Assembly (NCBI GenBank): GCA_943354045.1
Contig: CALRBF010000001.1
Location: 68,046 to 132,045 of the forward strand
Length of the DNA: 64,000 bases
From: Parcubacteria group bacterium
GTDB taxonomy: Bacteria; Patescibacteriota; Minisyncoccia; SW-4-49-11
Reading direction: 5' to 3'
Notes under the pieces: generated by a model
The model's database searches: none
What the model was told of the DNA's origin: nothing
What the model saw: only the letters and a program-made list of their open reading frames with translations
Shown here: positions 3,005-39,045 of the stretch, one piece after another
Layout: each line of letters opens with the position of its first letter
Position numbering within the stretch: position 1 is the stretch's first letter
Program-made: the position numbers and the translations under genes

Positions 3005-4396
3005 TTACTTTTTCTGAAGCCCAAGTCCTAATTCTAAAAGCTGATCGATTTGAATTGGGTTTGGAGATTGCATCATAGGATCTCTCCCATCTCCAGTTTT
3101 TGGAAAAGCAATAACTTCACGAATACTCGATTCATTTTGAAGTACTGTTAATAATCTATCTAACCCCCAAGCAATGCCTCCATGAGGTGGGGTTCCAGAA
3201 GCAAGAGCTGTCAACATATGCCCAAAAGCTTGATCAACTATTTCTCCTTTATAGCCTAAAATTTCTAATACTATTCTCAAGGCTTCTGGATTATGATTTC
3301 GAATACTTCCCCCTCCTATTTCGAATCCATTTAAGACAATATCATATTGCGTTGAGATAATATTCCCAATATCTTTTTTCTCTAATAATTGCTCTCTATA
3401 TTCAGGCTTTGGTGCTGAAAAAGGATTATGAGAAAATGTCCAATTTCCTTGCTCAGTTTTCTCGAATTGTGGAAAATCTATAATCCAACAAAATGCTAAT
3501 ATATTTGTGTCTTCTTTGTCCTCTCTAATATCTGGTCTATCATTACCATATTTTTCCATTGCCTCAGCATAGCTAATACGAGGAAAAGGTATAGTCTGAA
3601 TTTTCTTTTCTGGGTATAATTGTGTCACCAAATCAATCAAAAGCTTTTCATTTAAAGCAATAACATCTTCTGCTTCTACAAAACTAATCTCTAAATCTAA
3701 TTGAGTAAATTCAGGCTGTCTATCTTTACGAGTATCTTCATCTCGAAAACAACGGGCAATTTGAAAATACTTTTCTATACCACTTGCCATCAATAATTGC
3801 TTATATTGTTGTGGTGATTGAGGAAGAGCATAAAAACTTCCAGGCTGATGCCGAGATGGCACTACAAAATCTCGAGCACCTTCTGGAGTAGATTTGGTCA
3901 AGATAGGAGTTTCAATTTCAAGAAATCCCTCTTTATCAAGAAAATTACGAATAAATTGAGTCACTTTATGCCGATTAGCAAGATTTTTATACATTGATGA
4001 TCGGCGTAAGTCAAGATACCGATATTGTAATCTCAATTCCTCACTAATTTCATTTTTATCCTGATCTAGGGGAAATACAGGAGTAATAGCAGTATTCAAT
4101 ACTTCTATACTCAAAGCTTCAATTTCAACAGTACCCGTAGCCAAATCAGTATTAATAAGTCTTTCTGGACGAGCTTTTACTAGCCCACGAATACGAATCA
4201 CCCATTCTGGACGAATCTCTACAATCAGGGACTGTGAGGCCTCATCTAAACTTGCAGGGACCAATACCACTTGAACTTTTGCCGTGCGGTCTCTAAGGTC
4301 AATAAATGAAATTTTCCCATGATCTCTTTTGGTATCAATCCACCCCTCAATAGTAATTTCTTCTCCAATATGATTAATAGTATCTAGAATGCTCAT
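3005..4396 (-). CDS. aspS: Aspartate--tRNA ligase, short form lacking the bacterial GAD insertion (archaeal/eukaryal-type, possibly non-discriminating)
   Basis: Class II aaRS motifs are present: QSPQQYKQLLMASGIEKYFQIARCFRDEDTRKDRQPEFTQLDLE (the AspRS motif 2 signature FRDED..RQPEFTQ) and GLDRLL (motif 3). There is an N-terminal OB-fold. At 463 aa it is too short to carry the GAD domain of canonical bacterial AspRS. Confidence 0.8.
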   Translation of the reverse strand: MSILDTINHIGEEITIEGWIDTKRDHGKISFIDLRDRTAKVQVVLVPASLDEASQSLIVEIRPEWVIRIRGLVKARPERLINTDLATGTVEIEALSIEVLNTAITPVFPLDQDKNEISEELRLQYRYLDLRRSSMYKNLANRHKVTQFIRNFLDKEGFLEIETPILTKSTPEGARDFVVPSRHQPGSFYALPQSPQQYKQLLMASGIEKYFQIARCFRDEDTRKDRQPEFTQLDLEISFVEAEDVIALNEKLLIDLVTQLYPEKKIQTIPFPRISYAEAMEKYGNDRPDIREDKEDTNILAFCWIIDFPQFEKTEQGNWTFSHNPFSAPKPEYREQLLEKKDIGNIISTQYDIVLNGFEIGGGSIRNHNPEALRIVLEILGYKGEIVDQAFGHMLTALASGTPPHGGIAWGLDRLLTVLQNESSIREVIAFPKTGDGRDPMMQSPNPIQIDQLLELGLGLQKK

Positions 4397-4454
4397 GATT
4401 TATATACTTATATTAGTTTTTATTATAGCATTAAAAGCTTATTTTGAGAAATTC

Positions 4455-5207
4455 TTATTGATTTACTTTGAATCTCACCTTACCAAATTCAGCTTTTGTA
4501 AAATTATCTTCAATAATCAATACATATTCTCCATTTTGAATATTGCGTCCATTAATATCTACAAAATTCCAATCAAATTTCCCTGTATTAATACGATTTT
4601 GAGCTAATACAAAACGCTCATTATCACTTTCAAGATATATATTTACAAAAAATATATCAGGAGTAAAGCTCCAAGAAATACTGTTATTCTCTTGATTGAA
4701 AATTTGTTTTTCCACTGGACTCGTAATAGTAAGATTTTGTTTTTCACGAATCAGAGCAAATATAGGAGATTGTCCTATATTTTGACTATTTTGTACTAAT
4801 ATAATTTGATATTGACCTGGCTCATAAGCTTTACTATTTATCTCAATAAAACCCCTATTAAACTTTTGCTGTCCTAAAGAATATTCTTTAAGCTGTGGCT
4901 TATCTGACAGAGAAGAATCAAGAGATACCAAAAAAACTTCAATTGGCTCTAAATAAACTTGACTTAATTCTAATTTGATTATATCCCCAATTTCAATATT
5001 CTGATATTGTCTAGGACTATTCACAGTTACTATTTTTTTAGGAGAAATAGTATTATTTTGATTAGATATGGGATTTTGTATATTTTCTTTATTAGTATAA
5101 ACAACAAAGATACGAGCTCCTATTATCAATACTAAAAATAAAACAATACCTATACTATAAAGTATATTATTTTTTATCCAATTTATAAATTGATTCCAAA
5201 ACATCAT
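4455..5207 (-). CDS. Hypothetical protein with an N-terminal transmembrane anchor
   Basis: 250-aa ORF with a single N-terminal hydrophobic helix. Its start overlaps the end of the upstream plsC-like gene. Confidence 0.35.
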   Translation of the reverse strand: MMFWNQFINWIKNNILYSIGIVLFLVLIIGARIFVVYTNKENIQNPISNQNNTISPKKIVTVNSPRQYQNIEIGDIIKLELSQVYLEPIEVFLVSLDSSLSDKPQLKEYSLGQQKFNRGFIEINSKAYEPGQYQIILVQNSQNIGQSPIFALIREKQNLTITSPVEKQIFNQENNSISWSFTPDIFFVNIYLESDNERFVLAQNRINTGKFDWNFVDINGRNIQNGEYVLIIEDNFTKAEFGKVRFKVNQ

Positions 5208-5787
5208 CTGCTACTTTTTGTATTTCATCTTCTGACTTTATTGTATCATATGATTTGATTTTGCCTATATGTAGTGTTAAATACCATATTGGAATATATT
5301 TCCAAGGCTTTCGATAATTAATATATACAGGTAATACTGGAGCTTGTGATTTCCAAATGAGATACCCTACACCCCTTTTTGCATCCCCTTTATGATCAGG
5401 GTGTTTTTGCATTTTTCCTTCTGGAAAAATGCCAACCATCTCACAATTCTTTAAGGCAGTAACCATGGGATCAAGAACTTGAATACCCATTCCACGATCA
5501 ACTGGGAAACATTTCATTTGACGTAAATACCATCCAACAATAGGTTGCTTAAAAAATCGTGCCCCTGTAACAAAGTAAATTGATATAACCTTAGTTCGAT
5601 TCATCAAAGCTAAATAATACCAAATCCAAATACCATCATATGGCCCTCGATGATTAGATGCAATAATTAATGGTCCCTTTATATTTTGCAAATTTTCCAC
5701 TCCACTAATATGGACTTGTTTGCAAAACAAACGCATAATTATATGAAAAAACCAGAAGGTAATCCAGTACAATACATTATGTACCAT
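5167..5787 (-). CDS. Lysophospholipid (1-acyl-sn-glycerol-3-phosphate) acyltransferase family protein
   Basis: It carries the H(X)4D acyltransferase motif (ASNHRGPYDG) and the FPEGK motif typical of PlsC-type acyltransferases. Confidence 0.6.
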   Translation of the reverse strand: MVHNVLYWITFWFFHIIMRLFCKQVHISGVENLQNIKGPLIIASNHRGPYDGIWIWYYLALMNRTKVISIYFVTGARFFKQPIVGWYLRQMKCFPVDRGMGIQVLDPMVTALKNCEMVGIFPEGKMQKHPDHKGDAKRGVGYLIWKSQAPVLPVYINYRKPWKYIPIWYLTLHIGKIKSYDTIKSEDEIQKVADDVLESIYKLDKK

Positions 5788-5855
5788 AACAAAAAGATTA
5801 ATTATATTCCAACTATAATATAACTAATCTTTTTTGTCAATTATGGACAACTGAT

Positions 5856-6188
5856 TTATTTAGCTTTCTTAGTGACTTTAGATTGAGTCTCAGCAACTTC
5901 ATTCCATTTTTCTTGTAAAGTAGTCTTTAATGTCTCAATTTGTTCTTGGGTAATAGGATCTAATTTTTGATATTCATTGACAACTGCATCAACAATTTGA
6001 TCATATTTTGATTGACTCATATCCTCCAAGTCATTAATTCTTTTTGCAATATCTTTGCTCGTAGCTCTATATGCTTTTTTTAAATCTTGTCTTGTCTGAC
6101 GGCCTGATTTAGGGGCAAATAATACGCCAAGAGCTCCTCCAATTGCAAGTCCAGCCATAATTCCTTTGAATAGATTTTTATTACTCAT
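5856..6188 (-). CDS. YtxH-like protein (DUF948-related general stress-type small protein)
   Basis: The N-terminus MSNKNLFKGIMAGLAIGGALGVLFAPKSGRQTRQDLKK is characteristic of the YtxH family, and the rest of the protein is a charged helical segment. Confidence 0.55.
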   Translation of the reverse strand: MSNKNLFKGIMAGLAIGGALGVLFAPKSGRQTRQDLKKAYRATSKDIAKRINDLEDMSQSKYDQIVDAVVNEYQKLDPITQEQIETLKTTLQEKWNEVAETQSKVTKKAK

Positions 6189-6203
6189 AGTAGTGTTTTT
6201 TAA

Positions 6204-6551
6204 TTATATAATACGTTTTTTCTTTTTAGGTATAACTTTACTTAAAGCTTCCCCCAAATCATCCCCTTCATCTGTAACTGTAGATTTAGATGAATGATTC
6301 CAAGAGGCCACAATTTCTGAAATATTCCCAATAACCGAGGTAATACCAGAAATTGAAGTAAGATTGGATTTTAATTCAGTAGCAGTATCTACTGCTACAT
6401 CACCTAAATGCAAAGCTTTGTCAATAAGATTACGTATTGCATCAATACTTTTCTTTACATCGAGTAACATAATTAATAACACCAATAGTAATAGGCCTAT
6501 TTCTATCAATATAATTGCATATAGGCTTAAAATAACTTGTTCCGTAATCAT
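6204..6551 (-). CDS. DUF948-like small membrane protein
   Basis: An N-terminal transmembrane helix is followed by a helical region (AIRNLIDKALHLGDVAVDTATELKSNLTSISGI). It is paired with the YtxH-like gene, as is common in Firmicutes-type loci. Confidence 0.4.
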   Translation of the reverse strand: MITEQVILSLYAIILIEIGLLLLVLLIMLLDVKKSIDAIRNLIDKALHLGDVAVDTATELKSNLTSISGITSVIGNISEIVASWNHSSKSTVTDEGDDLGEALSKVIPKKKKRII

Positions 6552-6685
6552 AATTTTTTATTTTATACTATATTAATATATTATCATATCATATCATATT
6601 GTCAATTAACATTATGAATATACATATACCCCTTCATATGTTATACTTATTATATTGATAAAATAGATCTCAAATACGAATTTCC

Positions 6686-7423
6686 ATGATTAAATCTCTA
6701 TTCACAAAGAAAAATATTATCATATCTAGTATTGTTCTTGTATTAGGTTTGGGAATAGCCTATATCCTATTAAAGCCCGATTCTAAACCTAAGCTCACGC
6801 CTATAGATGAAGGGCTTGCTCCCATTAGAATTATTCAGATCAAGGACGGCAAAGAACAAGAAGTTAATTTTACTGAGTCAGGAGCTGAAATTATTGCAAG
6901 TGCCCTTTTTTCTGCCAATCCTTTTGATGAACAAATTAAACAAGATATACAAGATCTTGGTATTAATCGTATAGATTTCCCCCCCCTCCCAGAAAATCAA
7001 ATAAAAGTTATCCCCAATCCAGAAAATCCACAAGCAGCAATTGAAAAATATTTAAAAGAGGTATATACTATATTCAAGGATAATACTATCCAGCTCAATA
7101 TCAATCAGCTCTCTGAAGAGGCTTTGGATGGAAAAACACAAAATATTCAATCCCTACTTCGCATTAATACTGATTTATATCGTTCATTATTCACAATAGA
7201 AGTACCCCAAGATGCATTAAAGCTTCATAAAGGATATATTCGAATCACCCAAATACAAAATAACTTTTTATTGGGACTATTAAATGCAAGCTCTGATCCA
7301 TTAAGACTTGATATCAATAGTAAAATCAGTCTATCTTTACTCCAAAAGATTGATATACCAATAAAAGAGGAACTACAAAGTATCAGAAAAAAATACAATA
7401 TCATATACCAAAAACAATCATAA
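6686..7423 (+). CDS. Hypothetical protein with an N-terminal transmembrane anchor
   Basis: 245-aa ORF with an N-terminal transmembrane helix. It is the first gene of a plus-strand block that ends at 12505. Confidence 0.35.
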   Translation: MIKSLFTKKNIIISSIVLVLGLGIAYILLKPDSKPKLTPIDEGLAPIRIIQIKDGKEQEVNFTESGAEIIASALFSANPFDEQIKQDIQDLGINRIDFPPLPENQIKVIPNPENPQAAIEKYLKEVYTIFKDNTIQLNINQLSEEALDGKTQNIQSLLRINTDLYRSLFTIEVPQDALKLHKGYIRITQIQNNFLLGLLNASSDPLRLDINSKISLSLLQKIDIPIKEELQSIRKKYNIIYQKQS

Positions 7424-7424
7424 T

Positions 7425-9134
7425 ATGTCTTCTCTATTTTCTCAGAAAATAATAACAATAATCGGAATATTTTTATTCGGATTTCTATTTATAGCACCTC
7501 ATATTACCTATGCTGACAACTTGTATGGGCAATCTTGTGGTACAAAAAAATGTAGTGGAGCTGAAGTGTGTCAAAAGCAATATAGAGGGGTATTACCTAT
7601 TGGAGCACAAAATGATGGAAATGCTACCTATACCTGTGTTAAGCCACAGAATATAGCGGCTCCAGATAGTCCCTATAAGGGAGTTCAGGCATCTTGTAGT
7701 GATGTATTTCAAAAAGCATTTGGGCTTGATTTAAGCTCACTTACTGGTTCAGTATTAACAGATACTCTCCAGGTTGGATTGGGACAAATAAAAAATAGTT
7801 TAGGCCTAGATGGAGTCGCATTTGGATATGATTCAAGGGGTCCTCAAGCTTTAAACCTTAATAATGTAGGATTAAACTGGAGTATAGATCCTACTAATCT
7901 TATTAATACCGATGCATCATTTTTCAAAGACTTTGTCCCAAAATGTGATAGTGCTTATAATAATATAAAAGGTATAATTAATACTAATTTCCTCGTAGCT
8001 CCCCTTCCTGTTGATATTTTTAATCCCCTACCTCTTCCAGTTAATGTTACCTCTCCCACTCCACTTCCAGTAATAGTAGTGGATGATTTAGCTCTTTATC
8101 AGCAAAAAGAATTAATTGATGCCCCTCTAGCCGCTCAACAAAAAGCAAAGACAATAGCGACCGTAAGCGATACTCTGAGATATCAAATTAGTGTGGACAC
8201 TTTAATTGTCAATAATTATTTTGCTATTAATCAGTTAGGAATACAATTTGGAGCATTAGATCCTAATACTGGAGTAGTATCTAAAGAAGCTATAGATAAA
8301 TATGGATCTTATCAGAATTTCTCATTAGATAAAAATAAAGAAATAGAACAATATTTTAAAGGTTTACAAGATCAAAAAAGTCAATTACCTGAGGAGGATT
8401 TTACCCAAAGTTGTGGAAATGTAAAGACGGAAGATGCAGCGAAAGTGAGTTTTGAATGTGGTATTTTAGCGACAAAAACCATAAATAATCCCAATGGTAT
8501 TGCCTTTAATATAGCACAAGTAGCTGCAGAAAAATCACAAAATGCCACCGAACTCCTTGATCAAGAAGTTCGTGATGGAAGTGGATATTTTGCAAAGACA
8601 GCAGATGGAGATAAGAACCCATTCACCAAAACTATTCAGACCCCAGGATCAAACATAGAATCTCTTACCAATAAAGTATTAGAGTCTACTGTGGATCAAG
8701 CTATTACTGCATCTGGAGACAATTGTTTTGAGGCAATTCCTAATAATATCCTCGAGGGGTCACTCAAACCCGTACTGACTCAAGGATTATTTGGAGTTAA
8801 TAATACTCTAGCATCAGTACAAAAAAATGTAACCTCTAATCCTGTTAACTCATTACAGAATCCTAGTGGTTTTGCTAATCAATTAACTTCTGGATTACAA
8901 GGTGCTATACCTGACCCTAATAAATTCTTCAAGTCTCTACAAAATTCATTATTACAAAATGTAACCAATGGATTATCTTGTGAGCTTAATAAGCAAGTTT
9001 CAGGGCTACTCAATGGAGCTCTCGGGAATATTAATATCCCAGGTATTGGTAATGTAAGTGGGGCATTAACGAATCAAGCCACAGGGGCTATAAATGGAGC
9101 TCTCAATAATGCTGTTAATGGACTTATACCATAA
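7425..9134 (+). CDS. Secreted protein with a signal peptide; Cys-containing N-terminal domain and an S/T/N/G-rich low-complexity C-terminus
   Basis: Signal peptide IITIIGIFLFGFLFIAPHITYA. The mature protein has a Cys cluster (CGTKKCSGAEVCQK...YTC) and a long polar region. It lies immediately upstream of the TrbL/VirB6-like gene. Confidence 0.4.
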   Translation: MSSLFSQKIITIIGIFLFGFLFIAPHITYADNLYGQSCGTKKCSGAEVCQKQYRGVLPIGAQNDGNATYTCVKPQNIAAPDSPYKGVQASCSDVFQKAFGLDLSSLTGSVLTDTLQVGLGQIKNSLGLDGVAFGYDSRGPQALNLNNVGLNWSIDPTNLINTDASFFKDFVPKCDSAYNNIKGIINTNFLVAPLPVDIFNPLPLPVNVTSPTPLPVIVVDDLALYQQKELIDAPLAAQQKAKTIATVSDTLRYQISVDTLIVNNYFAINQLGIQFGALDPNTGVVSKEAIDKYGSYQNFSLDKNKEIEQYFKGLQDQKSQLPEEDFTQSCGNVKTEDAAKVSFECGILATKTINNPNGIAFNIAQVAAEKSQNATELLDQEVRDGSGYFAKTADGDKNPFTKTIQTPGSNIESLTNKVLESTVDQAITASGDNCFEAIPNNILEGSLKPVLTQGLFGVNNTLASVQKNVTSNPVNSLQNPSGFANQLTSGLQGAIPDPNKFFKSLQNSLLQNVTNGLSCELNKQVSGLLNGALGNINIPGIGNVSGALTNQATGAINGALNNAVNGLIP

Positions 9135-9135
9135 T

Positions 9136-11175
9136 ATGAAAATTAAAACAAAACATATACAATATATAGCTCCTATATGTATTATAACTATCTTATTTTT
9201 CCCCTCTATTACTCATGCACAGAATGTTGTAGACCTTTTTACAGACCCATTGGGGTTTTTTGGAGATGCATTAGGAGCTATTCTAAGTGGAGTTGTAAAA
9301 CCTCTGTTAGATAGCGTAATGTCTTTTCAGAACTTCTTTCCAGCAGGAGTAAACGCAGGTTGGACAGCTACCAGAGATTTTGCCAATTTATTCTTTGCGC
9401 TTATATTACTCTTTATTGCAATAGCAACCGTACTCAATACCGGAGGCTTAGATAATTATACTGCCAAGAGAATGTTACCAAAATTCATATTTGCGGCTTT
9501 ATTTATTAATTTTAGTAAGGCTATTGTGGGATTCCTCATTGATATTAGCCAAATTATTATGATATCCCTATATAATACTTTTGGCACCAATTTAGCAAAA
9601 GATATATTAGATGCATCAGATTATGCACAAACAGCCTCCGAAAGTGGTTTAGATAGCAATATTATTAAATTATTTACTATAATACTTTTAGTTGTCCTAA
9701 TATTTGTATTATTATGGACATCAGCTATTTTTGCTATACGCATAGTAACTCTTTGGTTTGTTATTATGTTGTCTCCCCTAGCCTTTGTATCTGGGCTCAT
9801 TCCCCCATTGAGTTCTCTATCAAAAAGTTGGCAAAATATGTTACAGCAAGCTCTTGTAACAGGTCCAGTATTAATGTTCCTCTTATACTTAGCTGTTACG
9901 GTAATGAATTCAGGCATAGGTCCTGATATTGGAGGGAATCTTTTAGAGAATGGAAACATAATAAAATTTGTATTGGTAATTGGACTATTATTCCTCGCTA
10001 ATATAGAAGCAATGAAAGCAGGACAATCCGCTCCCCCAATGATCAAAAATGCCGTTGGTGTAGCAGGAACTGTAGCTACTTTTGGACTAGGAGCTTATGT
10101 CGGAGCTGGAGGAGTTGGTACTGGAAAAATGTTTGGTAAGGGAGGAGAATTAGTGCAAGGTGGAGTTAAAAATACTGATAAGTTAGCTGGAGGTGCTACG
10201 AGAGGTGTACAGGTTTTGAGTGGAGGGAAATTTAACCCTAATGATAGATATGAGATGTGGAAAGAACAAAATAAGACGAATGTTGAGAAAGGAAAAGCAT
10301 TTGGTGGTGGCTATTTTGGAGCGTTAGCACAACAAACCCTTGGAGGTCAAGCTGGTCAAAAAGCAAATTATCAAAAAACTCAATTAAGGTTAGCTGAAGA
10401 AGCAAGAAAAGCAAATAAATTAGATGATAATCCTATATTAGCCAGGGCTTTAGCAAGTGCTGAATCAGAAATAATAGAAAAGAATAAGTTTGAAGAACGT
10501 CCAGATAAAATAATTGCAGATATTAAAGACGCTATTAAAAAAGCTGATTTAGTTACTGCTAGAGCACTTACAACTCATCTTAATTCTCTAGGGAAAATAA
10601 ATGAATTATTTAACGGAAATGGTCCTTTTAAGGATATTGCTGAAGATTATGCTACAGAGGCTGATCAATTTGCTGCATTTAATCAAAAACATCTTCAGGC
10701 AAATGATTCCCAATATGATAAATCTTTCTTACAAAGGAATAAAAATATTGCTAAAAACAAATCAGGTATGGAAGGGTTTGGAGTTAATGCCGCTACAACA
10801 ATTCCTAATATTAATAGTGTTGCAGGGCAACCAAATGTTCCCCAAAATTCTCCATTATTTCAAAAATACAAAAAAGGATCTTTATCAAGTAATGCAAAAA
10901 CTTTCTCTGATAATCTCTTTAGTACCCGTAAAATTGATCCGAATACCAATAAATTTGCTTTTGATGCAAGTGGTAATGCTACTTATGAATTTGACAGTCG
11001 GGCATTTGATGATTTTGTATCAAATAGGAGTATGAATGAATTAGAAAACCCTGATACCTGGAAATCTATGAATCAATCTTTAAAAACAACTATTATTGAT
11101 GGATTAAGACAATCTGGATTACAAAAAAATGACCCAGGGAATGCTGCTGCTGCTTGGAGGGGAATAGAACCTTAA
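9136..11175 (+). CDS. TrbL/VirB6-like polytopic membrane protein, a putative type IV secretion channel component
   Basis: There is a signal-like N-terminus (start chosen at the ATG at 9136, just after the upstream stop). About 6 transmembrane helices span roughly aa 90-300. The long C-terminal tail is Gly-rich (GLGAYVGAGGVGTGKMFGKGGELVQGG...), an architecture typical of the TrbL/VirB6 family. The family assignment is inference. Confidence 0.4.
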   Translation: MKIKTKHIQYIAPICIITILFFPSITHAQNVVDLFTDPLGFFGDALGAILSGVVKPLLDSVMSFQNFFPAGVNAGWTATRDFANLFFALILLFIAIATVLNTGGLDNYTAKRMLPKFIFAALFINFSKAIVGFLIDISQIIMISLYNTFGTNLAKDILDASDYAQTASESGLDSNIIKLFTIILLVVLIFVLLWTSAIFAIRIVTLWFVIMLSPLAFVSGLIPPLSSLSKSWQNMLQQALVTGPVLMFLLYLAVTVMNSGIGPDIGGNLLENGNIIKFVLVIGLLFLANIEAMKAGQSAPPMIKNAVGVAGTVATFGLGAYVGAGGVGTGKMFGKGGELVQGGVKNTDKLAGGATRGVQVLSGGKFNPNDRYEMWKEQNKTNVEKGKAFGGGYFGALAQQTLGGQAGQKANYQKTQLRLAEEARKANKLDDNPILARALASAESEIIEKNKFEERPDKIIADIKDAIKKADLVTARALTTHLNSLGKINELFNGNGPFKDIAEDYATEADQFAAFNQKHLQANDSQYDKSFLQRNKNIAKNKSGMEGFGVNAATTIPNINSVAGQPNVPQNSPLFQKYKKGSLSSNAKTFSDNLFSTRKIDPNTNKFAFDASGNATYEFDSRAFDDFVSNRSMNELENPDTWKSMNQSLKTTIIDGLRQSGLQKNDPGNAAAAWRGIEP

Positions 11176-11186
11176 GATAATTCACT

Positions 11187-12059
11187 ATGACACTCGCAGA
11201 TATCAAAAGTGAAGCTCAATCCCTTATCACCACAGATAATGTGCCGGGATCTCTTGAATTTGCGGAGAAATTAGAGAAATCTCTTAATGAGAATAATATC
11301 AAAGATTCGAATCCAGAGGCTTATCGAGAATTATCTAAGATTATATTCCAACTTTATGTTACTGCTATTCCCAATATATCAACCGAATTATTCCATAAAA
11401 TTATTTCCCTCAATATTATAGAGGCTTTGAATCCTCTATGGCCTTCTGAGCGTGATTTTGCCGCCCGAATTGAGAGTAGATATTCTATTTACCCTGTAGA
11501 ACTCATCAAAGAAGAAATGCGCAAGGATTTACTCCCTCTTATCAAACAAAATAATCAACTTATTGGCTCTGTAGTATTACGATTATCTCAAGAAAATCCT
11601 CAGGCCAAGCCAAGTATTAGTAATTGGATTGAGTATTATGATAGAACAACTGGTTTAGGGTCAGCTAACAGCTTTGAGCGTTCTCGTTTTATTAGTGGCG
11701 ACCCCATTGTACAAACCTTAAATCCTGAGGAAAAAGAGTCTCTGAGGAAAGTAGTTCAATTCTACGATTATCTTCAAACTGATGAGACAATCCTCTATCA
11801 GGATATTTATAATACTGCTCCTCAATCAACTCTCAATACAATAACTCCTAATATTGACCCTAAGCCAAAACAGACTACTCCCCTCCCCACACCTAAACCA
11901 ATTACTACGGTGAAAACTCCTGTCTCTACTCCCAATAATATTCCCCAAAATACAATTCCCCGAGCTCCAATACCTCGCCGTACTTCTGCTCCTGTAGTAT
12001 TGACAGCTAAGCCAACTCCTATTCCACAAAATCTTGTTAATCTCAAAAAACCAGAATAA
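11187..12059 (+). CDS. Hypothetical protein with a Pro/Thr-rich C-terminal tail
   Basis: 290-aa ORF whose C-terminus is PKPKQTTPLPTPKPITTVKTPVSTPNNIPQNTIPRAPIPRR. No catalytic motif is recognisable. Confidence 0.35.
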   Translation: MTLADIKSEAQSLITTDNVPGSLEFAEKLEKSLNENNIKDSNPEAYRELSKIIFQLYVTAIPNISTELFHKIISLNIIEALNPLWPSERDFAARIESRYSIYPVELIKEEMRKDLLPLIKQNNQLIGSVVLRLSQENPQAKPSISNWIEYYDRTTGLGSANSFERSRFISGDPIVQTLNPEEKESLRKVVQFYDYLQTDETILYQDIYNTAPQSTLNTITPNIDPKPKQTTPLPTPKPITTVKTPVSTPNNIPQNTIPRAPIPRRTSAPVVLTAKPTPIPQNLVNLKKPE

Positions 12060-12061
12060 CT

Positions 12062-12505
12062 ATGCAGCAATATAATATTCCACAATTTATTGACTCTGAA
12101 GATAAAATCATTGGTCCTCTGACCATAAGGCAATTTGCATTTTTGGCAATTGGTGTGGTAATTGGGGGATTTTTATGGTATTTTAAACCCAATTTGGGAG
12201 TTTTTGTGATTAGTATATTACCTGTTGCTATTGCAACTTTTGCTTTTGCTTTTATCAAGATAAATGGGCAGAATTTTGATATATTCCTGGTAAATGTTGT
12301 GGTTTATATCCTGAAGCCAACTTTATTCCTTTGGTCTCGAGATATAGATCCAACCCAATCAGTTATTAAAGTATCTATTGAAAAGCGTAAAGCTTCATTT
12401 AGGCGAGAGACTCATGATTATAATCAATCTCGTGTAGAAGAAGTAGCTTGGACTCTGGATAGTTATGGTGAGAAAACGGTAATTCCAGATATTGCGACAG
12501 AATAG
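12062..12505 (+). CDS. PrgI/VirB3-like small membrane protein (Gram-positive conjugation-type type IV secretion component)
   Basis: The N-terminus MQQYNIPQFIDSEDKIIGPLTIRQFAFLAIGVVIGGFLWYF matches the PrgI-family pattern, followed by two transmembrane helices. The assignment is inference from memory of the family. Confidence 0.4.
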   Translation: MQQYNIPQFIDSEDKIIGPLTIRQFAFLAIGVVIGGFLWYFKPNLGVFVISILPVAIATFAFAFIKINGQNFDIFLVNVVVYILKPTLFLWSRDIDPTQSVIKVSIEKRKASFRRETHDYNQSRVEEVAWTLDSYGEKTVIPDIATE

Positions 12506-12757
12506 CTATTTTGTATTATTGGTATCTTTTACAGTTTCCGTATTAGCTTTATTATTTTCTTCTACACTATTTTTTATTTCCTCAGCTTGATTTTTTGTCT
12601 CATTCGCACTTGGTATTTCTGGTACTTTTATATCGGGTTTTGTAAAAGACAAGCCTGAAAAATTAAGAATCATAGACCAAATAAATACTCCTACTATCAT
12701 AATACTCCCTATTACAAATAGTATTATCAATTGTTTTTTCTTTTTATCGCTGTCCAT
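12506..12757 (-). CDS. Small membrane protein with a charged C-terminal tail
   Basis: 83-aa ORF with one transmembrane helix (LIILFVIGSIMIVGVFIWSMIL) and a Lys/Glu/Asn-rich tail. Confidence 0.3.
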   Translation of the reverse strand: MDSDKKKKQLIILFVIGSIMIVGVFIWSMILNFSGLSFTKPDIKVPEIPSANETKNQAEEIKNSVEENNKANTETVKDTNNTK

Positions 12758-12768
12758 TAATCCCCCTC

Positions 12769-13968
12769 TTAATCTTTGTTTATAAGCTTACTATGTCTTG
12801 ACATTACCAGAATCATAAGTCCTGCCAAACCTAATACTGCTAATCCCATATATCTATCATTACGCAGAAATCCAAATTTAGATGCACTTTGTATATTTGC
12901 ATCAAGTGGTATCCTATCTTTATTAATAGTAAAAGATTTAGTCGCATTGGCATCTCCATTAATATCCTTTACCACTATATCTATTTTATAGGCTTGATTA
13001 GGATCAATATCGAGAGATAAAGAATTACCACTGCCATCCTGTACTTCATCATTAACTCTATAGGTATAAGATAATTTTGCATTTTGCCCAATATTATCCA
13101 CATCACTTGATATCAACAGCTGTATTGCCTCATCAATTTTTAAATCATCAGCATAATCAATAGGGGTATTATTCTTATTATTGACGAGTGAAACCCGAAT
13201 TGCAGGCTGTTTAATCGCAATAGTATTTATTCCATAATACCTGGTATATCCTGTTATTCTATCTCTTGCAATAGCTTGTATGAGATAACTTTTATCATAT
13301 CCTTTATTCTCCGTAAAGGTAATTTTATTATTATTTTGCTCTACTGTCTCCCCATCAATTTTCCACTCAATTGCATATTGTGATATGGGTAACTCTGTCG
13401 CAACAGAAATGGTATCCCCTTTTGCAGGATTAAGTGGTCTATAATCGAGGGAGATTTTATCAAAAATATCCAAACTAATACTCCCCGTCTTAATTATTCC
13501 TTGAGAATTGACAGTAATTTCTATTTGATAAGTACCTGATTCTGTAAATGTATAAAAGAATCCCGTTTTATCAATTCCATTTGCTTCAAATACAATCTTT
13601 TCTCCCCTCTTTATTCTCCAATTATATTGAGCTCCATCAAATACAAACCCTTTATCTATATGATAATTAATAGTTGCAAAATTAATTTGTTGTTTGGTAA
13701 AAAGATATTTATTTTTTACTACAAGTTTAATCTCCCCTGTTGATGATTTCTCGGTATAATAACTATCTGCAAAACTTTGCTTAATATAATTGTCAATCAG
13801 GGTATTGGCCTCATCCTGAGTTTTGGGATCATTATTGGAAAGAGTTGATTGGGGAATAATCGTTGAATCAGTATTGGTAGTACTAGTATCCTGTGCCAAT
13901 ACTACTGATGAGCTCAATACTATTGAACCTATCAGCAATGCTACTATTATATATTGTGTATATTTCAT
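12769..13968 (-). CDS. Secreted, C-terminally membrane-anchored protein with Ig/PKD-like beta-rich repeats
   Basis: Signal peptide IIVALLIGSIVLSSSVVLA. The body is a Thr/Asn-rich beta-type region with repeated internal motifs, and the C-terminus has a transmembrane segment (YMGLAVLGLAGLMILVMS). Confidence 0.4.
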   Translation of the reverse strand: MKYTQYIIVALLIGSIVLSSSVVLAQDTSTTNTDSTIIPQSTLSNNDPKTQDEANTLIDNYIKQSFADSYYTEKSSTGEIKLVVKNKYLFTKQQINFATINYHIDKGFVFDGAQYNWRIKRGEKIVFEANGIDKTGFFYTFTESGTYQIEITVNSQGIIKTGSISLDIFDKISLDYRPLNPAKGDTISVATELPISQYAIEWKIDGETVEQNNNKITFTENKGYDKSYLIQAIARDRITGYTRYYGINTIAIKQPAIRVSLVNNKNNTPIDYADDLKIDEAIQLLISSDVDNIGQNAKLSYTYRVNDEVQDGSGNSLSLDIDPNQAYKIDIVVKDINGDANATKSFTINKDRIPLDANIQSASKFGFLRNDRYMGLAVLGLAGLMILVMSRHSKLINKD

Positions 13969-14022
13969 TGATATTAATTAAATTTGTATTTAGTATATCA
14001 TATTATTCTTGATATTGGGAAT

Positions 14023-14667
14023 TTATCTTTTTGCTGCCACTGGCTGAGGTTTTACACTACGATTAAATCCCCGAATATTATTCACGGCTCCTGATACACT
14101 GAGCGATTGTCTCCATTTATTAATAGAATCTTCAAATTTCTCATTATCTTCTTTGATTTGTTTTGCTCGGGATCGATGAGCTTTTATATGAAGCCAAGCT
14201 CCAATAGTCCAAGTTGGAGAAAAATCTCCAATAAATGGAATGGCCTCTACAACACCTTTAATTATACTACTCACTATTCTTTTCCAACCAAATGCCATAA
14301 TATATTCCCCTGTCTTATCAAGTATATACTTACTCGCCTCTTGAGTTCTACGAGCCAAAGCCTGTTGAACTTTACTTTGTGCAGGACTGGTATTACGGGA
14401 ATTACGAGATAAGCGCATTAATTGTCTAATGGTATTGACTTGATACAATTTTAGATTAGCATGATATATCGTAAGATAACTATAATATATAGCACAAAAT
14501 GCAAAATCAGTCATAATAGCTACAATATCTACCACAAAAGATCCAACAATAGAAACAACTTGAATAACTGGTACGAAATTAATAATAAATAATATGAATC
14601 CTAAAAAATCCCACATTATGGCAAATCCGAGATTGATATATAACCACATTCCACTTAATGGTTTCAT
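14023..14667 (-). CDS. Hypothetical membrane protein
   Basis: 214-aa ORF with 3 N-terminal transmembrane helices and a basic C-terminal region. Confidence 0.35.
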   Translation of the reverse strand: MKPLSGMWLYINLGFAIMWDFLGFILFIINFVPVIQVVSIVGSFVVDIVAIMTDFAFCAIYYSYLTIYHANLKLYQVNTIRQLMRLSRNSRNTSPAQSKVQQALARRTQEASKYILDKTGEYIMAFGWKRIVSSIIKGVVEAIPFIGDFSPTWTIGAWLHIKAHRSRAKQIKEDNEKFEDSINKWRQSLSVSGAVNNIRGFNRSVKPQPVAAKR

Positions 14668-16971: not shown

Positions 16972-18573
16972 CTATAACATACTGTCACTAATAGGAATTC
17001 CTGTTGGCACACTATCAAGTCCCTCCGGAGATACAACAATAATATTATTCCATTTATACCCTAATCCTTCAAATACCCCTGGAGAGGTCACATAGCGTTT
17101 TTTTCCATCAGACATGATATACACTTCCCCTCTGTTTGAAGCTCTCAAAATCACTCCATCACGAAAATATACCGCAGGTCCCTGCTGATAAGAATTCCAT
17201 TCAGACCCCGATACATATACTAAATCCTTATAATTATATTGGGTATCGAATACTTCTGGACTTGGTATTGGTCGCCTTTTACCCGCTTCCAAAACCTCTA
17301 TCCCAGTTGGATTATCGCGATTAACCAATAATGTCCCATCTGGATAAGGGCGAGACTGCATAATAGGTCCAATTGGATGAGATATTGCAAGAGTCCCATC
17401 AGCAATAATAGTAATATTACTCCATTTATAGCCTAAAGCCTCAAAAGTAACTGGGGATGGAATATGTCTTCTTTGCTGATTACTAATCACATATACATCT
17501 GGATTATTTCTCTCCCTTACTAGCATCCCCTCTCGAAAAGTCAAAGCCGAGGCCAAAGGATAAGAATCCCACTCGGCACGTGTGACATCTAATACATCTT
17601 TCCATTTAAAACGAGAATTAAAAACATCAGGATTTACGAGAGGCCTAATACTCCCATTCTCGAGATATCCAACTCCCGTATCTGTTCTTAACAATGAACC
17701 ATTGGGAAAAGTTCGAATATTACTATTATCAGGAAATAAGGCTAATTCAGTTGCATTAATACTAATCACATTTTTCCCTCCAATATTACCCGTAGGAGTT
17801 TTTATCCCATTTTGAATAGTATAAACACGACCATTATCATCTCGATACAGCGAATTATCATAATATTGCTTCCATTCTTGAGCTCGATTCCGAAGCCAGC
17901 TCATATCAACCATATTAGTGTCTCCATTACCAGCTTCTACAGCTCCATGATCAGTAAGCCGAAAGCCGGTATAATTAGAACTATATGCCTTAGTATAAAA
18001 ATTCCAAATAGGTTCAGTCACATAATCAGTTGGGGCAATACTATTAGTTGAACTAAGCCATCCAGATAATTTGGCTAAAGATTGTTTCATAGCTTCCGGT
18101 ACTATTGCATAGCCACTTCCATAGCGACCAATCAGAGAAACTCCAATACTTTGATAATTAAAATTATCTCCCGTACTATTCACATAAAGATGAGCTCCTC
18201 TCACCCCATTTTGTCCCATTCTCCCCTGATAAATACTGCCATCGCGAGCAATGAGATAATTATACCCTATATCCCCCCAACCATTATTACGGGCATGTGT
18301 AGTGAATATTGAACGAATTATTTGTCTAGAATCAAGAGAATCACTATTAAAATCAGCTAAAGCTGTATCGTGTAATAGTATTCTCTTTATCTGAAAAGTA
18401 TTATTAGAATTTGGTGCCCAATTATTGAGGGTATAGGTATTATCATCCGCTGTTGCCCAAGTATTACGAGATTGTATATTGGGAGTACTCGCAAAAGTGG
18501 ATATTGGGAATATAAATACAATCAACATTATCATTGACAATAATATTGATCGCAAATATAATAGCCCCCTCAT
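16972..18573 (-). CDS. Secreted N-acetylmuramoyl-L-alanine amidase (Amidase_2/PGRP domain) with four C-terminal repeats of about 60 aa
   Basis: Signal peptide at the N-terminus. The amidase_2-like core is NNGWGDIGYNYLIARDGSIYQGRMG...GAHLYVNSTGDNFNYQSIGVSLIGRY. The C-terminus has four repeats of the pattern DG.LL......YVI..G.RR.IPSP.VF...GY.W..V..VS. Confidence 0.7.
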   Translation of the reverse strand: MRGLLYLRSILLSMIMLIVFIFPISTFASTPNIQSRNTWATADDNTYTLNNWAPNSNNTFQIKRILLHDTALADFNSDSLDSRQIIRSIFTTHARNNGWGDIGYNYLIARDGSIYQGRMGQNGVRGAHLYVNSTGDNFNYQSIGVSLIGRYGSGYAIVPEAMKQSLAKLSGWLSSTNSIAPTDYVTEPIWNFYTKAYSSNYTGFRLTDHGAVEAGNGDTNMVDMSWLRNRAQEWKQYYDNSLYRDDNGRVYTIQNGIKTPTGNIGGKNVISINATELALFPDNSNIRTFPNGSLLRTDTGVGYLENGSIRPLVNPDVFNSRFKWKDVLDVTRAEWDSYPLASALTFREGMLVRERNNPDVYVISNQQRRHIPSPVTFEALGYKWSNITIIADGTLAISHPIGPIMQSRPYPDGTLLVNRDNPTGIEVLEAGKRRPIPSPEVFDTQYNYKDLVYVSGSEWNSYQQGPAVYFRDGVILRASNRGEVYIMSDGKKRYVTSPGVFEGLGYKWNNIIVVSPEGLDSVPTGIPISDSML

Positions 18574-18575
18574 AA

Positions 18576-20513
18576 TTATTGTAAAGGTCCTACTGGAATA
18601 GATTGATCAATTAAGAATCCATATTGTAATGTATCATCAGTAACTACTCCTAGAGCCAACATAGCCTCAGGAGAAAGCCCAGATACACGATTAGTAAATA
18701 TAGCAGGCCCCGATTCCATAATAGAGGCTACTAATCTCTTACCATTAGCAGGATTGGTAACTAATACCTTGCGTCCTCTATGCCAATTTTTAGCAGTATT
18801 ACTAAAGTCTGCACTACGAGTCCTTCCTCTCCAGATATCGGTTCTAAACTCATATACTTCTTGTACTGTACTTCCTGAATTATGAGATTTAGGAGAAGCT
18901 GCTATAGATGGACTATCTACACCTCGCTGAGATACAATCAAACTATTTCCATCTCTACCACTATATGCAATAATTTCTCCATTAATAATAACCCAACCAG
19001 TACTTGGATAATCTGCCACATTAGCAAGTGGTATTCTATTAGCAGCAGCAGCAATATTCTGAGTTAATGTACTTGTAGCTTCATACCATCGTACATAATT
19101 CCAACGCATAGTAATATAATACTTCTCATCTTCAACGCCAAATGGAGCATAGCTCGAATTAAGACTTCCTCCAGGACATGATAATGCAAATGCTCCTCCC
19201 GTAGTTAATAGGCCATTTTGTGCTGAGGCTGGAGTACCTGCTCTTCCATAATGATCACCGCTGGTTTCATTACAATCTCGAGAGAGATGCTGTTCACGAG
19301 CTGTTCTACCACTTGTAGCAGGGATAGCATACCCATCTATACTAGCGGCTTGAATATCAGAAAGGTTAGTCCCCATAGCATTAGAGTCAAATTCCTCTTG
19401 TGATACTGCAATTACATTAGCCCAATTATATCCCCGGGCGCCAAATATTGCGGGACTTGGAATACCTCTCTTTAATCCTCCTTCAATCACATATACTCCG
19501 CCACCAAAAGATATCAAAGCACCATTACTAAAGCCAACTCTTCCTGCCTTTGTATATTGATTTACAACATTGTCTGGTAATCTCAGTACGGAATCCCAAC
19601 TATATCCTTGGCTTGCAAAAATTTTAGGACTGGGAATATATTGTAAACTTCCATCATTAGCTACGCGATATATAGGTCCAGCAGTACCGATGAGAGATCC
19701 TTCTGCATATCGTTTCACTGTATTAAAAGCTCCAGATTCAGGAATAATAGATAATTCAAAATCTGTAGCTCGCTTTACTTGTCCCCAATTAAGTCCATAA
19801 CTCTCAAAAACTGCTGGAGAAGTAATAGGCTGCCGTACATTATTCTGCATCATAAATACTCCCGTAGCACTAGATATCAATAATCCATCTGGATAGAATT
19901 CATTGGCCCCTTGGGGATAGGTATTCAGATATGCCTCTGAGACATCAATCAGAGCTTCCCAACGATATCTTGCTTGAAATATAAGAGGACTAGGAATATA
20001 TCTTCTCTGCCCATTTTTAATCACATACACTTCCCCTCCTGGTTTTACCAATAAACTTCCATTGGGATGTTTGGAAGCTGTAGTTAAGCCAGGCCCCTGA
20101 GGCTGAGGAGCAAGTTCCGCATCACTTACCGCAATGACATTAGACCATTTGTACCCCTTTTGAAGAAAAGTACTCGGAGAATCAATAGGCAATCTCTGCC
20201 CATCAGATATTACAAAGACTCCGCCTCTATTAGATAATAATGATCCATCTCTATATGTCATTTGTGGACCATTAGGCAGTGCATCAATTTCAGTTTGTGT
20301 AGTAACTACCAAATCCTCCCATCTAAATTGAGATCGTAGCATATTAGGGGACTCAATAGGACGCTTTTGTCCATTATCAATATAATAGACTTTGGGATTA
20401 TTAGTAGATTTTAATAATATTCCATTAGGAAAGCTTGGGCTACTCGCATAACTCATTAATGGGAATGCCCATATCAAAGCAACCGTAATTAAAATTTTAT
20501 TTGATATTTTCAT
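18576..20513 (-). CDS. Secreted cell-wall protein with six copies of the same 60-aa repeat followed by a C-terminal RlpA/3D-like (double-psi beta-barrel) domain
   Basis: Signal peptide MKISNKILITVALIWAFPLMSYA. Six tandem repeats (for example GSLLSNRGGVFVISDGQRLPIDSPSTFLQKGYKWSNVIAVSDAEL) are homologous to the repeats in the adjacent amidase. The C-terminal segment GRKVLVTNPANGKRLVASIMESGPAIFTNRVSGLSPEAMLALG resembles the RlpA/3D lytic-transglycosylase-like fold. Confidence 0.5.
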   Translation of the reverse strand: MKISNKILITVALIWAFPLMSYASSPSFPNGILLKSTNNPKVYYIDNGQKRPIESPNMLRSQFRWEDLVVTTQTEIDALPNGPQMTYRDGSLLSNRGGVFVISDGQRLPIDSPSTFLQKGYKWSNVIAVSDAELAPQPQGPGLTTASKHPNGSLLVKPGGEVYVIKNGQRRYIPSPLIFQARYRWEALIDVSEAYLNTYPQGANEFYPDGLLISSATGVFMMQNNVRQPITSPAVFESYGLNWGQVKRATDFELSIIPESGAFNTVKRYAEGSLIGTAGPIYRVANDGSLQYIPSPKIFASQGYSWDSVLRLPDNVVNQYTKAGRVGFSNGALISFGGGVYVIEGGLKRGIPSPAIFGARGYNWANVIAVSQEEFDSNAMGTNLSDIQAASIDGYAIPATSGRTAREQHLSRDCNETSGDHYGRAGTPASAQNGLLTTGGAFALSCPGGSLNSSYAPFGVEDEKYYITMRWNYVRWYEATSTLTQNIAAAANRIPLANVADYPSTGWVIINGEIIAYSGRDGNSLIVSQRGVDSPSIAASPKSHNSGSTVQEVYEFRTDIWRGRTRSADFSNTAKNWHRGRKVLVTNPANGKRLVASIMESGPAIFTNRVSGLSPEAMLALGVVTDDTLQYGFLIDQSIPVGPLQ

Positions 20514-38062: not shown

Positions 38063-38544
38063 TCCGTAAATTGCTGTTCTAATGTCCTCTCTATAATAGT
38101 ATTATCCCTAACTACTCTTCCTTTAGAAATAATAAGAGGTTTTGTTGGAGGAATTGCTGCAGGATTACCTACTTGGAATTCTACTCTATATTGAATAGAT
38201 GAGCCACCTATACTAGATAATACAATCCATTTCCCTGTACTATCGACTTCTGCAATCGGTGCTTTACCATTAGGCCAATTTTGCCAAGATCCATTAATTA
38301 TACTTCCAGTAGGGGATGTAGTAAGAGCAACATCCCCTGTTTGTGCCAGTCGATATTCCCACGCATCAATACCAGTATTAGCTGCCTGTATTGCCTGTTG
38401 TGAATACAGATTTTCTCGAGAGATGCGAGATTCAACTGTGATTTTTTGTGATAAGGCAAGTAATAATATCAACATAACTGCTGATACAATAATAGTAACA
38501 AATAGGGTAATATCTCCTCTATATTGTTTTAGAATAGATTTCAT
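38059..38544 (-). CDS. PilX-like minor pilus assembly protein
   Basis: An N-terminal transmembrane helix is followed by the PilX_N-like pattern QQAIQAANTGIDAW. It is the last gene of the pilus block, and its stop overlaps the ligA start. Confidence 0.4.
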   Translation of the reverse strand: MKSILKQYRGDITLFVTIIVSAVMLILLLALSQKITVESRISRENLYSQQAIQAANTGIDAWEYRLAQTGDVALTTSPTGSIINGSWQNWPNGKAPIAEVDSTGKWIVLSSIGGSSIQYRVEFQVGNPAAIPPTKPLIISKGRVVRDNTIIERTLEQQFTD

Positions 38545-38550
38545 AGTATA

Positions 38551-39045
38551 TTAATTATTTCGTGGCATTGTGGTTGATTGCATAGTAACGATATCTTTAT
38601 CATCTACAGATTTAGCGGTAATCACTACAGTCACTATAGTTCCTGGGCTATTATTATTTACTGAACCACCATCCCCAGCCTTAATAAAAAAGCTAAGGTC
38701 CTCAACGGTAAATACACTGGAGTCAGTATATGCGATATAGAACACACCATTATCTACTGACTTCCTAATAATATTGCCATCTTTTTTATATACTACACCT
38801 GCCCCCTCCTGATCTATAAATGTAAGAGTACCTGTTGATGCATCTATCCTAAGATCAGATGAAGTTCTCAACTCTTTATCTATCACATTCAAAATAAATT
38901 GCAAATTATCTCTTACATTATCACTTTGCTGAGACTCTCTTTGATATTTAATAATATTAGTTATAGGCTGTGCTACTACAAGTATAATAATAGATAATAT
39001 CCCTATTACCACCGTAAGTTCTGCTATCGTAAATCCTTTTTTCAT
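38551..39045 (-). CDS. Type IV pilin-like (pseudopilin/minor pilin) protein
   Basis: The class III prepilin signal is MKKGFTIAELTVVIGILSIII (a G/FTxxE cleavage-methylation motif). Confidence 0.6.
   Translation of the reverse strand: MKKGFTIAELTVVIGILSIIILVVAQPITNIIKYQRESQQSDNVRDNLQFILNVIDKELRTSSDLRIDASTGTLTFIDQEGAGVVYKKDGNIIRKSVDNGVFYIAYTDSSVFTVEDLSFFIKAGDGGSVNNNSPGTIVTVVITAKSVDDKDIVTMQSTTMPRNN

Follow-up and report, generated by a model that had tools for sequence, protein, structure and literature searches.

Why would genes that look like the membrane components of a type IV secretion system (T4SS) stand together on a bacterial chromosome with no VirB4 ATPase beside them? The question is raised by five co-directional genes, here g1 to g5, at positions 6686 to 12505 (plus strand) of a 64,000-nucleotide stretch, the window, of contig CALRBF010000001.1 in the Parcubacteria group assembly GCA_943354045.1. 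A preliminary description made from the sequence alone had offered two readings of them, a remnant of an integrated element or part of the reduced, T4SS-like apparatus that ultra-small episymbionts carry. Our analysis supports the latter: the PrgI protein passes its family cut-off, g3 belongs to a VirB6-like family, and orthologues of the module stand upstream of TrsD-VirB4 at all 76 species loci compared outside the window's clade. The five genes are thus very probably one half, membrane and extracytoplasmic, of the chromosomal T4SS of Patescibacteria, a descendant of monoderm conjugation machinery (mating-pair formation class FATA, MPF-FATA), in a lineage where the operon is split after prgI and VirB4 is supplied in trans. 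The system is already known; what is new is the rearranged, split gene order, and the novelty is modest.

The product of g5 had been assigned to the PrgI/VirB3 family from its N terminus, and a Pfam search bears this out. Its match to PF12666 (PrgI) scores 44 bits (E = 3.4e-11), above the gathering cut-off of 27, and spans profile positions 2 to 81 of 91; PF12666 is also carried by 72 of 72 g5 homologues among the database matches listed. Hydropathy gives hydrophobic segments at residues ~16 to 43, 47 to 65, and 72 to 90, equivalent to two or three transmembrane (TM) helices. The alignment and the scan patterns derived from it define an N-terminal family motif, IPQF(I/V)(D/E)xED(K/R)(I/V)IGP(L/V/I)T(I/L)(R/K)QF, and P7, Q8, F9, G18, Q24, and F25 are invariant in the PrgI alignment. 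In known T4SSs, PrgI/VirB3 tethers VirB4 to the membrane.

For g3, previously described as TrbL/VirB6-like, the assignment is supported at the level of the sequence family, while the window protein itself is sub-threshold. It scores 14.3 bits against PF04610 (TrbL) over its full length and 17.4 bits (E = 0.004) over its TM domain, against a cut-off of 25.9, though the match covers profile positions 27 to 209 of 215. Among orthologous g3 TM domains, 15 of 55 match PF04610 (best E = 5e-6), and near-identical orthologues from the same species have precomputed matches to PF19590 (TrbL_3) at E ≤ 1e-5. The sole match of the g3 family profile to PDB sequences was TrwI, the VirB6 of R388, at a nonsignificant E of 2.1. 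Topology agrees with the family matches: hydropathy shows an N-terminal hydrophobic segment and ~5 to 6 TM segments in residues 80 to 295, so that a TM domain (~1 to 300) is followed by a Gly/Ala-rich linker (~300 to 345) and a hydrophilic tail of ~335 to 340 aa rich in Ala, Gly, Lys, and Asn. In three sister species, the TM domain of g3 orthologues is 69 to 77% identical versus 50 to 55% for the whole protein. Large hydrophilic C-terminal domains are carried by the "extended" forms of VirB6 (PMC12857230), and g3 fits that definition, being polytopic with at least five TM helices and a long tail. By analogy, g3 is presumed to be the channel subunit of the translocon.

In other Patescibacteria, homologues of these genes lie directly upstream of a T4SS ATPase. 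We scanned one genome per GTDB species with the PrgI alignment, kept the best 80 of 587 matches as loci, and called their open reading frames (ORFs). At the species loci that lie outside the window's clade, TrsD comes directly after PrgI in 76 of 76 cases and VirB4 next in 73, the contig ending first in the other three. An iterative search placed the g3 family upstream of PrgI in 55 loci. In the distant Patescibacterium GCA_024239035.1 (locus L003), the order is ksgA, Rce1, proteins of 268, 501, 582 (TrbL_3), and 493 aa, and PrgI, then a TraC-like/TrsD protein, a 584-aa VirB4 (DUF87, AAA_10, P-loop_TraG), four further genes, and jag-yidC-rnpA-rpmH-dnaA-dnaN. The window g1, g3, and g5 are homologous to the position-matched genes of L003, g3 resembling the 582-aa protein at E = 3.6e-15. 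The synteny comparison proposed in the preliminary description therefore places orthologues of g1, g3, g4, and g5 upstream of VirB4 in dozens of species, and the 76 of 76 PrgI-TrsD loci contradict the possibility, named there as one that would refute it, that these are envelope genes with no link to VirB4 loci.

This arrangement matches a published system. The Patescibacteria T4SS is VirB4 defined, MPF-FATA derived, chromosomal, and without a relaxase (Quinonero-Coronel et al. 2025, PMC12102498); it occurs in ~80% of Patescibacteria genomes, with ~20% of assemblies having no detectable VirB4, and is often near dnaA, an origin-proximal site (dnaA, dnaN, rnpA, ksgA) being reported for Paceibacteria and Microgenomatia (PMC12102498). 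PMC12857230 and PMC11665869, citing Wang et al. 2023, describe PrgI, VirB6, TrsD, and VirB4 as essential for the epibiotic growth of Southlakia epibionticum, the one species for which such a requirement is known. For what the system transports, effector delivery and uptake of host nucleic acids or nutrients have both been proposed (PMC11665869).

Within the window's clade, the operon is split. At no clade locus (window, L001/L002, L008-L010, and L015-L017, with PrgI 53 to 96% identical to that of the window) is PrgI followed by TrsD-VirB4. Instead, minus-strand genes for an acyltransferase, YtxH, and a protein of ~115 aa come before g1 to g5 on the plus strand, and these are followed by three or four clade-specific minus-strand genes for membrane or secreted proteins and then by serine hydroxymethyltransferase (SHMT) and FolD. 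Aspartyl-tRNA synthetase (AspRS) also belongs to the housekeeping flank on the acyltransferase/YtxH side. Locus L018 has the same upstream part, and its contig ends 86 nt past PrgI. The clade is a freshwater-lake lineage related to Candidatus Elulimicrobium, its closest genomes including metagenome-assembled genomes named Candidatus Paceibacteria bacterium from Lake Mendota; clade genomes are not listed in the supplement of PMC12102498. The module itself is not origin proximal: KsgA, YidC, RnpA, or DnaA lies within 10 kb of PrgI in 16 of the 35 outgroup loci of at least 18 kb and near PrgI in none of the clade module loci. Such a location is typical of the system but not obligatory.

The slot held by TrsD-VirB4 in other lineages is occupied in the window by three clade-specific minus-strand genes at 12506 to 14667, the first of which converges on prgI so that the two stop codons abut at 12506. 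The 83-aa product is anchored; that of 399 aa is secreted, has a C-terminal anchor, and gives weak PKD-like matches; and the 214-aa product is a membrane protein whose tail is basic. We considered whether they might be the post-VirB4 genes in inverted orientation and rejected this, as they have no homologues outside the clade. Further on, 4.5 kb downstream of PrgI, positions 16972 to 20513 (minus strand) encode two proteins, one an Amidase_2 peptidoglycan hydrolase (533 aa) and the other 645 aa long, that share repeats of ~60 aa ("DG..R.IPSP..F...GY.W..V"). The pair is kept in the closer clade loci (L008-L010 and L015-L017), and homologues of the 645-aa repeat protein stand just upstream of the T4SS cluster at two unrelated loci (L082 and L090). 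It is possible that the pair acts as a VirB1-like partner that opens the wall.

The preliminary description found no VirB4, VirD4, relaxase, or coupling protein in the window, and our searches concur. Pfam scans of nearly all larger ORFs of the window, including all those long enough for VirB4 or VirD4, revealed no VirB4, VirD4, or relaxase; tblastn of the window with Patescibacteria VirB4 and TrsD gave no match; and a search for Walker A motifs in the unannotated ORFs adjoining the module returned nothing. Nor were VirB4, VirD4, or a relaxase found in the 10 kb past either window end, for which assemblies made independently from the same organism (L095-L100) were used. The minus-strand 645-aa and 533-aa proteins were considered as ATPases and rejected, being the repeat protein and the Amidase_2 protein described above.

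The description of the module as lacking its ATPase holds locally and not for the clade, since relatives encode TrsD-VirB4 at another locus. VirB4 is so conserved (median pairwise identity in the phylum, 56%) that any ordinary search is swamped by the thousands of relatives closer to its query; with the VirB4 of L003 as query, all 120 matches listed were at least 78% identical to it, the named ones being Jorgensenbacteria, Brennerbacteria, and other Paceibacteria-type bacteria, and no clade VirB4 was among them. We therefore built a VirB4 DNA pattern biased toward AT codons, consisting of two invariant motifs with two-fold codons limited to their A/T-ending forms (77 to 94% of window usage), and scanned a metagenome collection with it. 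VirB4 lacked an upstream PrgI in 3 of the 120 loci recovered; two belong to unrelated lineages and the third is L214, where RbfA, initiation factor IF-2, and other genes precede TrsD, a 609-aa VirB4, and a 366-aa gene. The tetranucleotide correlation of L214 with the window is 0.90, compared with 0.92 to 0.97 for same-species loci, 0.72 to 0.85 for other clade members, and at most 0.71 for all 140 loci outside the clade, L214 not counted. Its VirB4 falls into a 95-member cluster at 90% identity together with a Candidatus Elulimicrobium humile protein, and its TrsD cluster holds ACO3TG_02755, whose locus-tag prefix is shared with the g4 homologue ACO3TG_03250.

Both halves are present in one clade genome, GCA_049449075.1, on separate contigs. 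JBMTTF010000048.1 repeats the window synteny, with g4-PrgI, minus-strand genes of 111, 406, and 192 aa, and SHMT-FolD (PrgI 73% and SHMT 82% identical to the window's), and JBMTTF010000037.1 (L241) carries TrsD, VirB4 (609 aa), a 368-aa gene, and two Wzy_C genes. Searching the genome beyond the window for VirB4, as the preliminary description had suggested, thus succeeded in clade relatives, while the ~84 kb covered of the window's own genome contains none. L241, L214, and L221-L249 have a 225-aa TrsD and a 609-aa VirB4 (DUF87, AAA_10, P-loop_TraG); the clade VirB4s are 90 to 96% identical to one another and 53 to 55% identical to that of L003, with GxGKS(Y) P-loop and hhhhDE motifs. In L221, ksgA lies upstream of the VirB4 half and yidC-rnpA-rpmH ~8.6 kb downstream of VirB4, and in Elulimicrobium-type contigs ksgA ends ~140 nt before TrsD, in the slot that Rce1 and the genes from g1 to PrgI fill in L003.

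Around the clade VirB4 half, the ksgA-TrsD junction (L221 3780 to 7305, L222 1 to 6371, and L230 178 to 317) is variable, elsewhere in the clade holding small unannotated genes, including an STIV_B116-like one. Genes for HNH endonucleases and, in L222, a fused LexA/S24-DNA methylase lie 3.4 to 5.5 kb downstream of VirB4, and the region looks like an insertion hotspot. The two solitary VirB4 loci from unrelated lineages, L102 and L127, were rejected as clade loci on their tetranucleotide correlations with the window (0.49 and 0.35) and, for L102, also on a release factor RF1 only 48% identical to that of the clade. In L102, from an AT-rich lineage, the solitary VirB4 (4332 to 6428) is 698 aa long, is extended at its N terminus by a Lys-rich segment, and is encoded between gyrA and gyrB with no TrsD or PrgI nearby. 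It is a second, independent route of VirB4 detachment.

For the remaining genes, g1, g2, and g4, searches of Pfam, NCBIfam, and PDB sequences gave no family assignment. Hydropathy gives g1 one TM segment at residues ~12 to 30. A jackhmmer search recovered its family at 19 distant loci, L003 among them, as the first cluster gene, situated 5.1 to 7.9 kb upstream of PrgI, and the family profile matched neither VirB8 nor any other T4SS protein among PDB sequences. Just past the anchor, Ca-binding repeats of the bacterial thrombospondin type 3 (TSP3) kind occur in 12 of 26 aligned g1-family members; the members with repeats are distant ones (for example, L069, L029, and L059), and the window g1 has none, which suggests a Ca-dependent extracellular stalk that was lost or diverged in the window's clade. 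We regard g1 as a candidate wall-spanning or scaffold subunit. The g2 protein has a signal-like N terminus and cysteines at 38, 43, 49, 71, 91, 174, 330, 345, 434, and 519; iterative search confined its homologues to clade loci, where it is the second cluster gene, the position of the 501-aa protein in L003. No TM segment is predicted in g4, whose family was found at 17 distant loci, where it separates g3 from PrgI, and is conserved in part of the phylum; among its 85 database homologues, one named Candidatus Elulimicrobium is 72% identical to the window protein. We regard g4 as a candidate cytoplasmic accessory or adaptor protein. Searches of PDB sequences with the g1, g4, and PrgI family profiles and with g2 as a single sequence returned no T4SS component, the weak matches obtained (a TSP3-like repeat protein, PYL2, and NDUFB10) being judged spurious or repeat driven, and a concatenated g1+g4 query returned only g4 homologues.

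Table 1. Positions, strand, and character of the module genes and of the region upstream of them
Feature	Positions	Strand	Description
Intergenic, upstream of g1	6552..6685		AT-rich, divergent; between minus-strand 115-aa gene and g1
g1	6686..7423	+	245 aa, bitopic, N-terminal anchor, extracytoplasmic domain
g2	7425..9134	+	569 aa, secreted, 10 Cys, polar Asn/Gly/Leu-rich tail
g3	9136..11175	+	680 aa, "extended" VirB6/TrbL-like polytopic membrane protein
g4	11187..12059	+	290 aa, soluble, Pro/Thr-rich tail
g5	12062..12505	+	147 aa, PrgI-family (VirB3-like) small membrane protein

The five ORFs are separated by only 1, 1, 11, and 2 nt (Table 1). Their tight packing on the plus strand had been noted before, as had the protein architectures (an anchored protein, a Cys-rich secreted protein, a polytopic protein, and a Pro/Thr-rich tail), with which hydropathy and composition agree. 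An upstream ATG at 9094 would extend g3 to 693 aa, and the N termini of its orthologues (MKIK..HI.YIAPI) favor the 9136 start. The intergenic region before g1 is likely to contain the operon promoter of g1 to g5. Promoter-like sites occur there on the plus strand (6619 to 6647, TATACA-17-TATACT with TG) and on the minus strand (6605 to 6578); the number of such sites there does not exceed chance expectation, and promoter and terminator scans gave no more than shuffled sequence.

We compared the window with three sister species to ask how the module evolves. The ratio of nonsynonymous to synonymous substitution rates (dN/dS) of PrgI is 0.045 to 0.078, versus 0.044 to 0.069 for SHMT, so purifying selection on PrgI is as strong as that on a housekeeping enzyme. 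The ratio is ~0.13 for g1, 0.10 to 0.16 for g4, 0.16 to 0.35 for g2, and 0.34 to 0.45 for g3, and no clade locus has lost the integrity of any of the five genes. Together with the conserved VirB4 proteins of the clade, this excludes a remnant in decay.

Most simply, the front half transposed away and the ATPase half remained in place. The ancestral operon would have been cut after prgI in the window's clade, the front half moving to a site between ytxH and glyA-folD and the trsD-virB4-368-aa half staying at the ancestral origin-proximal site (ksgA ... yidC-rnpA-rpmH). The machine would then be assembled from the products of two loci. By homology with monoderm T4SSs, g3 would form the membrane channel, and PrgI would recruit and dock a VirB4 hexamer made from the other locus together with TrsD. 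TrsD is a free-standing homologue of the N-terminal domain of VirB4. The anchored g1 and the secreted, disulfide-rich g2 may span or decorate the wall, while g4 may act in the cytoplasm as an accessory subunit.

Several observations weigh against this account. VirB4 in trans is observed in clade relatives, and the ~84 kb surveyed of the window's genome contains no VirB4; the link between the two runs through a relative's assembly whose PrgI is only 73% identical and through the composition match of L214. The g3 protein of the window scores under the Pfam gathering cut-off for TrbL. AlphaFold2 models were too poor for fold comparison, both for the g3 TM domain (single sequence, mean predicted local distance difference test score [pLDDT] 49) and for g4 (48-sequence alignment, all-helical, low-confidence pLDDT of 56, residues 209 to 290 disordered). 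Family, PDB-sequence, and profile searches assigned no function to g1, g2, or g4. Homologues of VirB1 and VirB8 and a VirB2-like pilin array were not identified beside the module; proteins of ~100 aa with two TM segments form no obvious array next to it, although no pilin-profile search was made.

Could the module instead be orphaned in the window's species? VirB4 might have been lost there, leaving an ATPase-independent role in adhesion or as a passive channel, or the envelope proteins might borrow the PilB/PilT motor. The ~84 kb around the module without VirB4 would fit such a loss, as would the ~20% of Patescibacteria assemblies with no detectable VirB4 (PMC12102498), and a complete type IV pilus cluster lies at 38.5 to 49 kb, its PilB and PilT ATPases 30 kb away. 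However, a clade genome with the same module synteny has TrsD-VirB4 elsewhere, the 90 to 96% identity of the clade VirB4s and their 95-member cluster indicate strong maintenance, and PrgI evolves at a dN/dS of ~0.05 to 0.08. To our knowledge, the only role of PrgI is to bind VirB4, which also counts against an orphaned module, and we consider this explanation very unlikely. We give still less weight to a working PrgI-TrsD-VirB4 operon elsewhere of which the module would be a spare, paralogous front half. A second PrgI copy could lie outside the best 80 of 587 matches and the 72 listed homologues that were covered, yet only one PrgI locus per clade species genome was found among those 80, and PrgI or VirB6 is never upstream of TrsD in clade VirB4 loci recovered with upstream sequence: L214, L221-L224, L230-L234, L240, and L244 have ksgA or unrelated small genes there.

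The preliminary description's other reading, here an integrated conjugative element in decay and stripped of its ATPases and relaxase, draws on genes that are indeed conjugation derived (PrgI and VirB6-like) and on the lack of an ATPase nearby. It is hardly credible given housekeeping flanks (AspRS, acyltransferase, and YtxH on one side and SHMT and FolD on the other) with synteny kept down to 53% PrgI identity, window scans without an integrase, relaxase, or coupling protein, a module GC content of 0.32 to 0.36 that is not anomalous against ~0.33 for the window, and five intact ORFs under purifying selection (dN/dS, 0.05 to 0.16 for PrgI, g1, and g4). The same genes are, moreover, chromosomal and vertically inherited across the phylum (PMC12102498). 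As for a generic envelope cluster unrelated to type IV secretion, with PrgI and TrbL similarity arising by chance, three of the five proteins lack a family assignment and the TrbL match is sub-threshold; but PrgI scores 17 bits above the Pfam cut-off, and orthologues of g1, g3, g4, and g5 lie immediately upstream of VirB4 in dozens of species, which contradicts the idea and leaves it next to no probability. A T4SS split after prgI, with its ATPase half at another locus, accounts for the locus better than any of these.

In other respects the window is unremarkable chromosomal DNA for a Patescibacterium, low in GC (~33%) and with genes for AspRS, SHMT, FolD, LigA, MurC-like, MurG, RecG, TrmD, and TsaD. 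The type IV pilus cluster, ~26 kb from the T4SS module, occupies 38500 to 49100 (minus strand) and comprises PilM, PilB (44984 to 46732), PilT (43463 to 44536), PilC, a prepilin peptidase, and pilin-like genes; in Southlakia, the type IV pilus and the T4SS are both described as essential (PMC12857230). A GC island at 56400 to 59750 reaches 52 to 60% GC in 56400 to 58300 and 58800 to 59700, with ~40% between them, versus the ~33% background. Its four minus-strand ORFs encode secreted proteins of 406, 150, 151, and 269 aa, and searches of Pfam, Rfam, and PDB sequences gave no match. The 406-aa protein ends in ...LRAGLRF, resembling a diderm outer-membrane beta-barrel, which is odd for a monoderm-type Patescibacterium; the 150-aa and 269-aa proteins have a common motif, and glycosyltransferase genes flank the island. 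Independent ENA assemblies (L098-L100) contain the island too, which rules out chimeric assembly, and it was likely acquired horizontally.

Few systems have been shown to be essential for an epibiotic lifestyle, and the Patescibacteria T4SS is among them. The locus studied here adds no new mechanism, and it presents the membrane half (g1, the VirB6-like protein, g4, and PrgI) as a separable, strongly conserved module and offers a natural example of T4SS halves that would work from different loci. It also flags g1, g2, and g4 as candidates for the missing VirB8, VirB1, or adhesin functions. It is, moreover, a warning to annotators that the lack of a neighboring VirB4 need not mean absence of the system. 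We can only speculate, and think it rather improbable, that the split lets the lineage regulate or dose the channel (g1 to g5) apart from the motor, that g1, g2, and g4 are genuine T4SS subunits not described so far, and that g1 stands in functionally for VirB8. If so, the dosage of channel and motor could differ between, for example, free-swimming and host-attached states, and g1 would replace the VirB8 that most Patescibacteria lack.

Among known systems, the closest counterpart is the Patescibacteria T4SS itself (PMC12102498), with which the locus and its ATPase half share PrgI/VirB3, a VirB6-like protein, TrsD, a VirB4 of the Patescibacteria clade, a chromosomal location with no relaxase nearby, and a monoderm-type architecture. 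The clade VirB4 half even keeps the origin-proximal setting near ksgA and yidC-rnpA-rpmH. Unlike in that system, the operon here is split after prgI with its membrane half between ytxH and glyA-folD, g2 is clade specific, and no VirB2-like pilin array is seen beside the module (by inspection, no pilin-profile search having been made). VirB3 away from VirB4 was reported mainly in Microgenomatia and Gracilibacteria (PMC12102498), whereas the genome records of the present clade bear the names Paceibacteria or Elulimicrobium. The MPF-FATA prototype, the Prg/Pcf system of Enterococcus plasmid pCF10 (prgH VirB6, prgI VirB3, prgJ VirB4), likewise has a VirB6-like gene followed by PrgI of the same family in a monoderm architecture without outer-membrane core proteins. 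It differs in that it serves plasmid conjugation and includes a relaxase, a coupling protein, and the adhesin PrgB, where no relaxase was found at the window module, and here g4 lies between VirB6 and PrgI and a separate TrsD precedes VirB4 at the other locus. The rvh T4SS of Rickettsiales (PMC12102498) is unrelated in sequence and host biology and belongs to the MPF-T class of diderms, with VirB7/9/10 and duplication of components, but it is functional although its subunits are encoded at separate chromosomal loci, and it thereby provides a precedent for assembly in trans.

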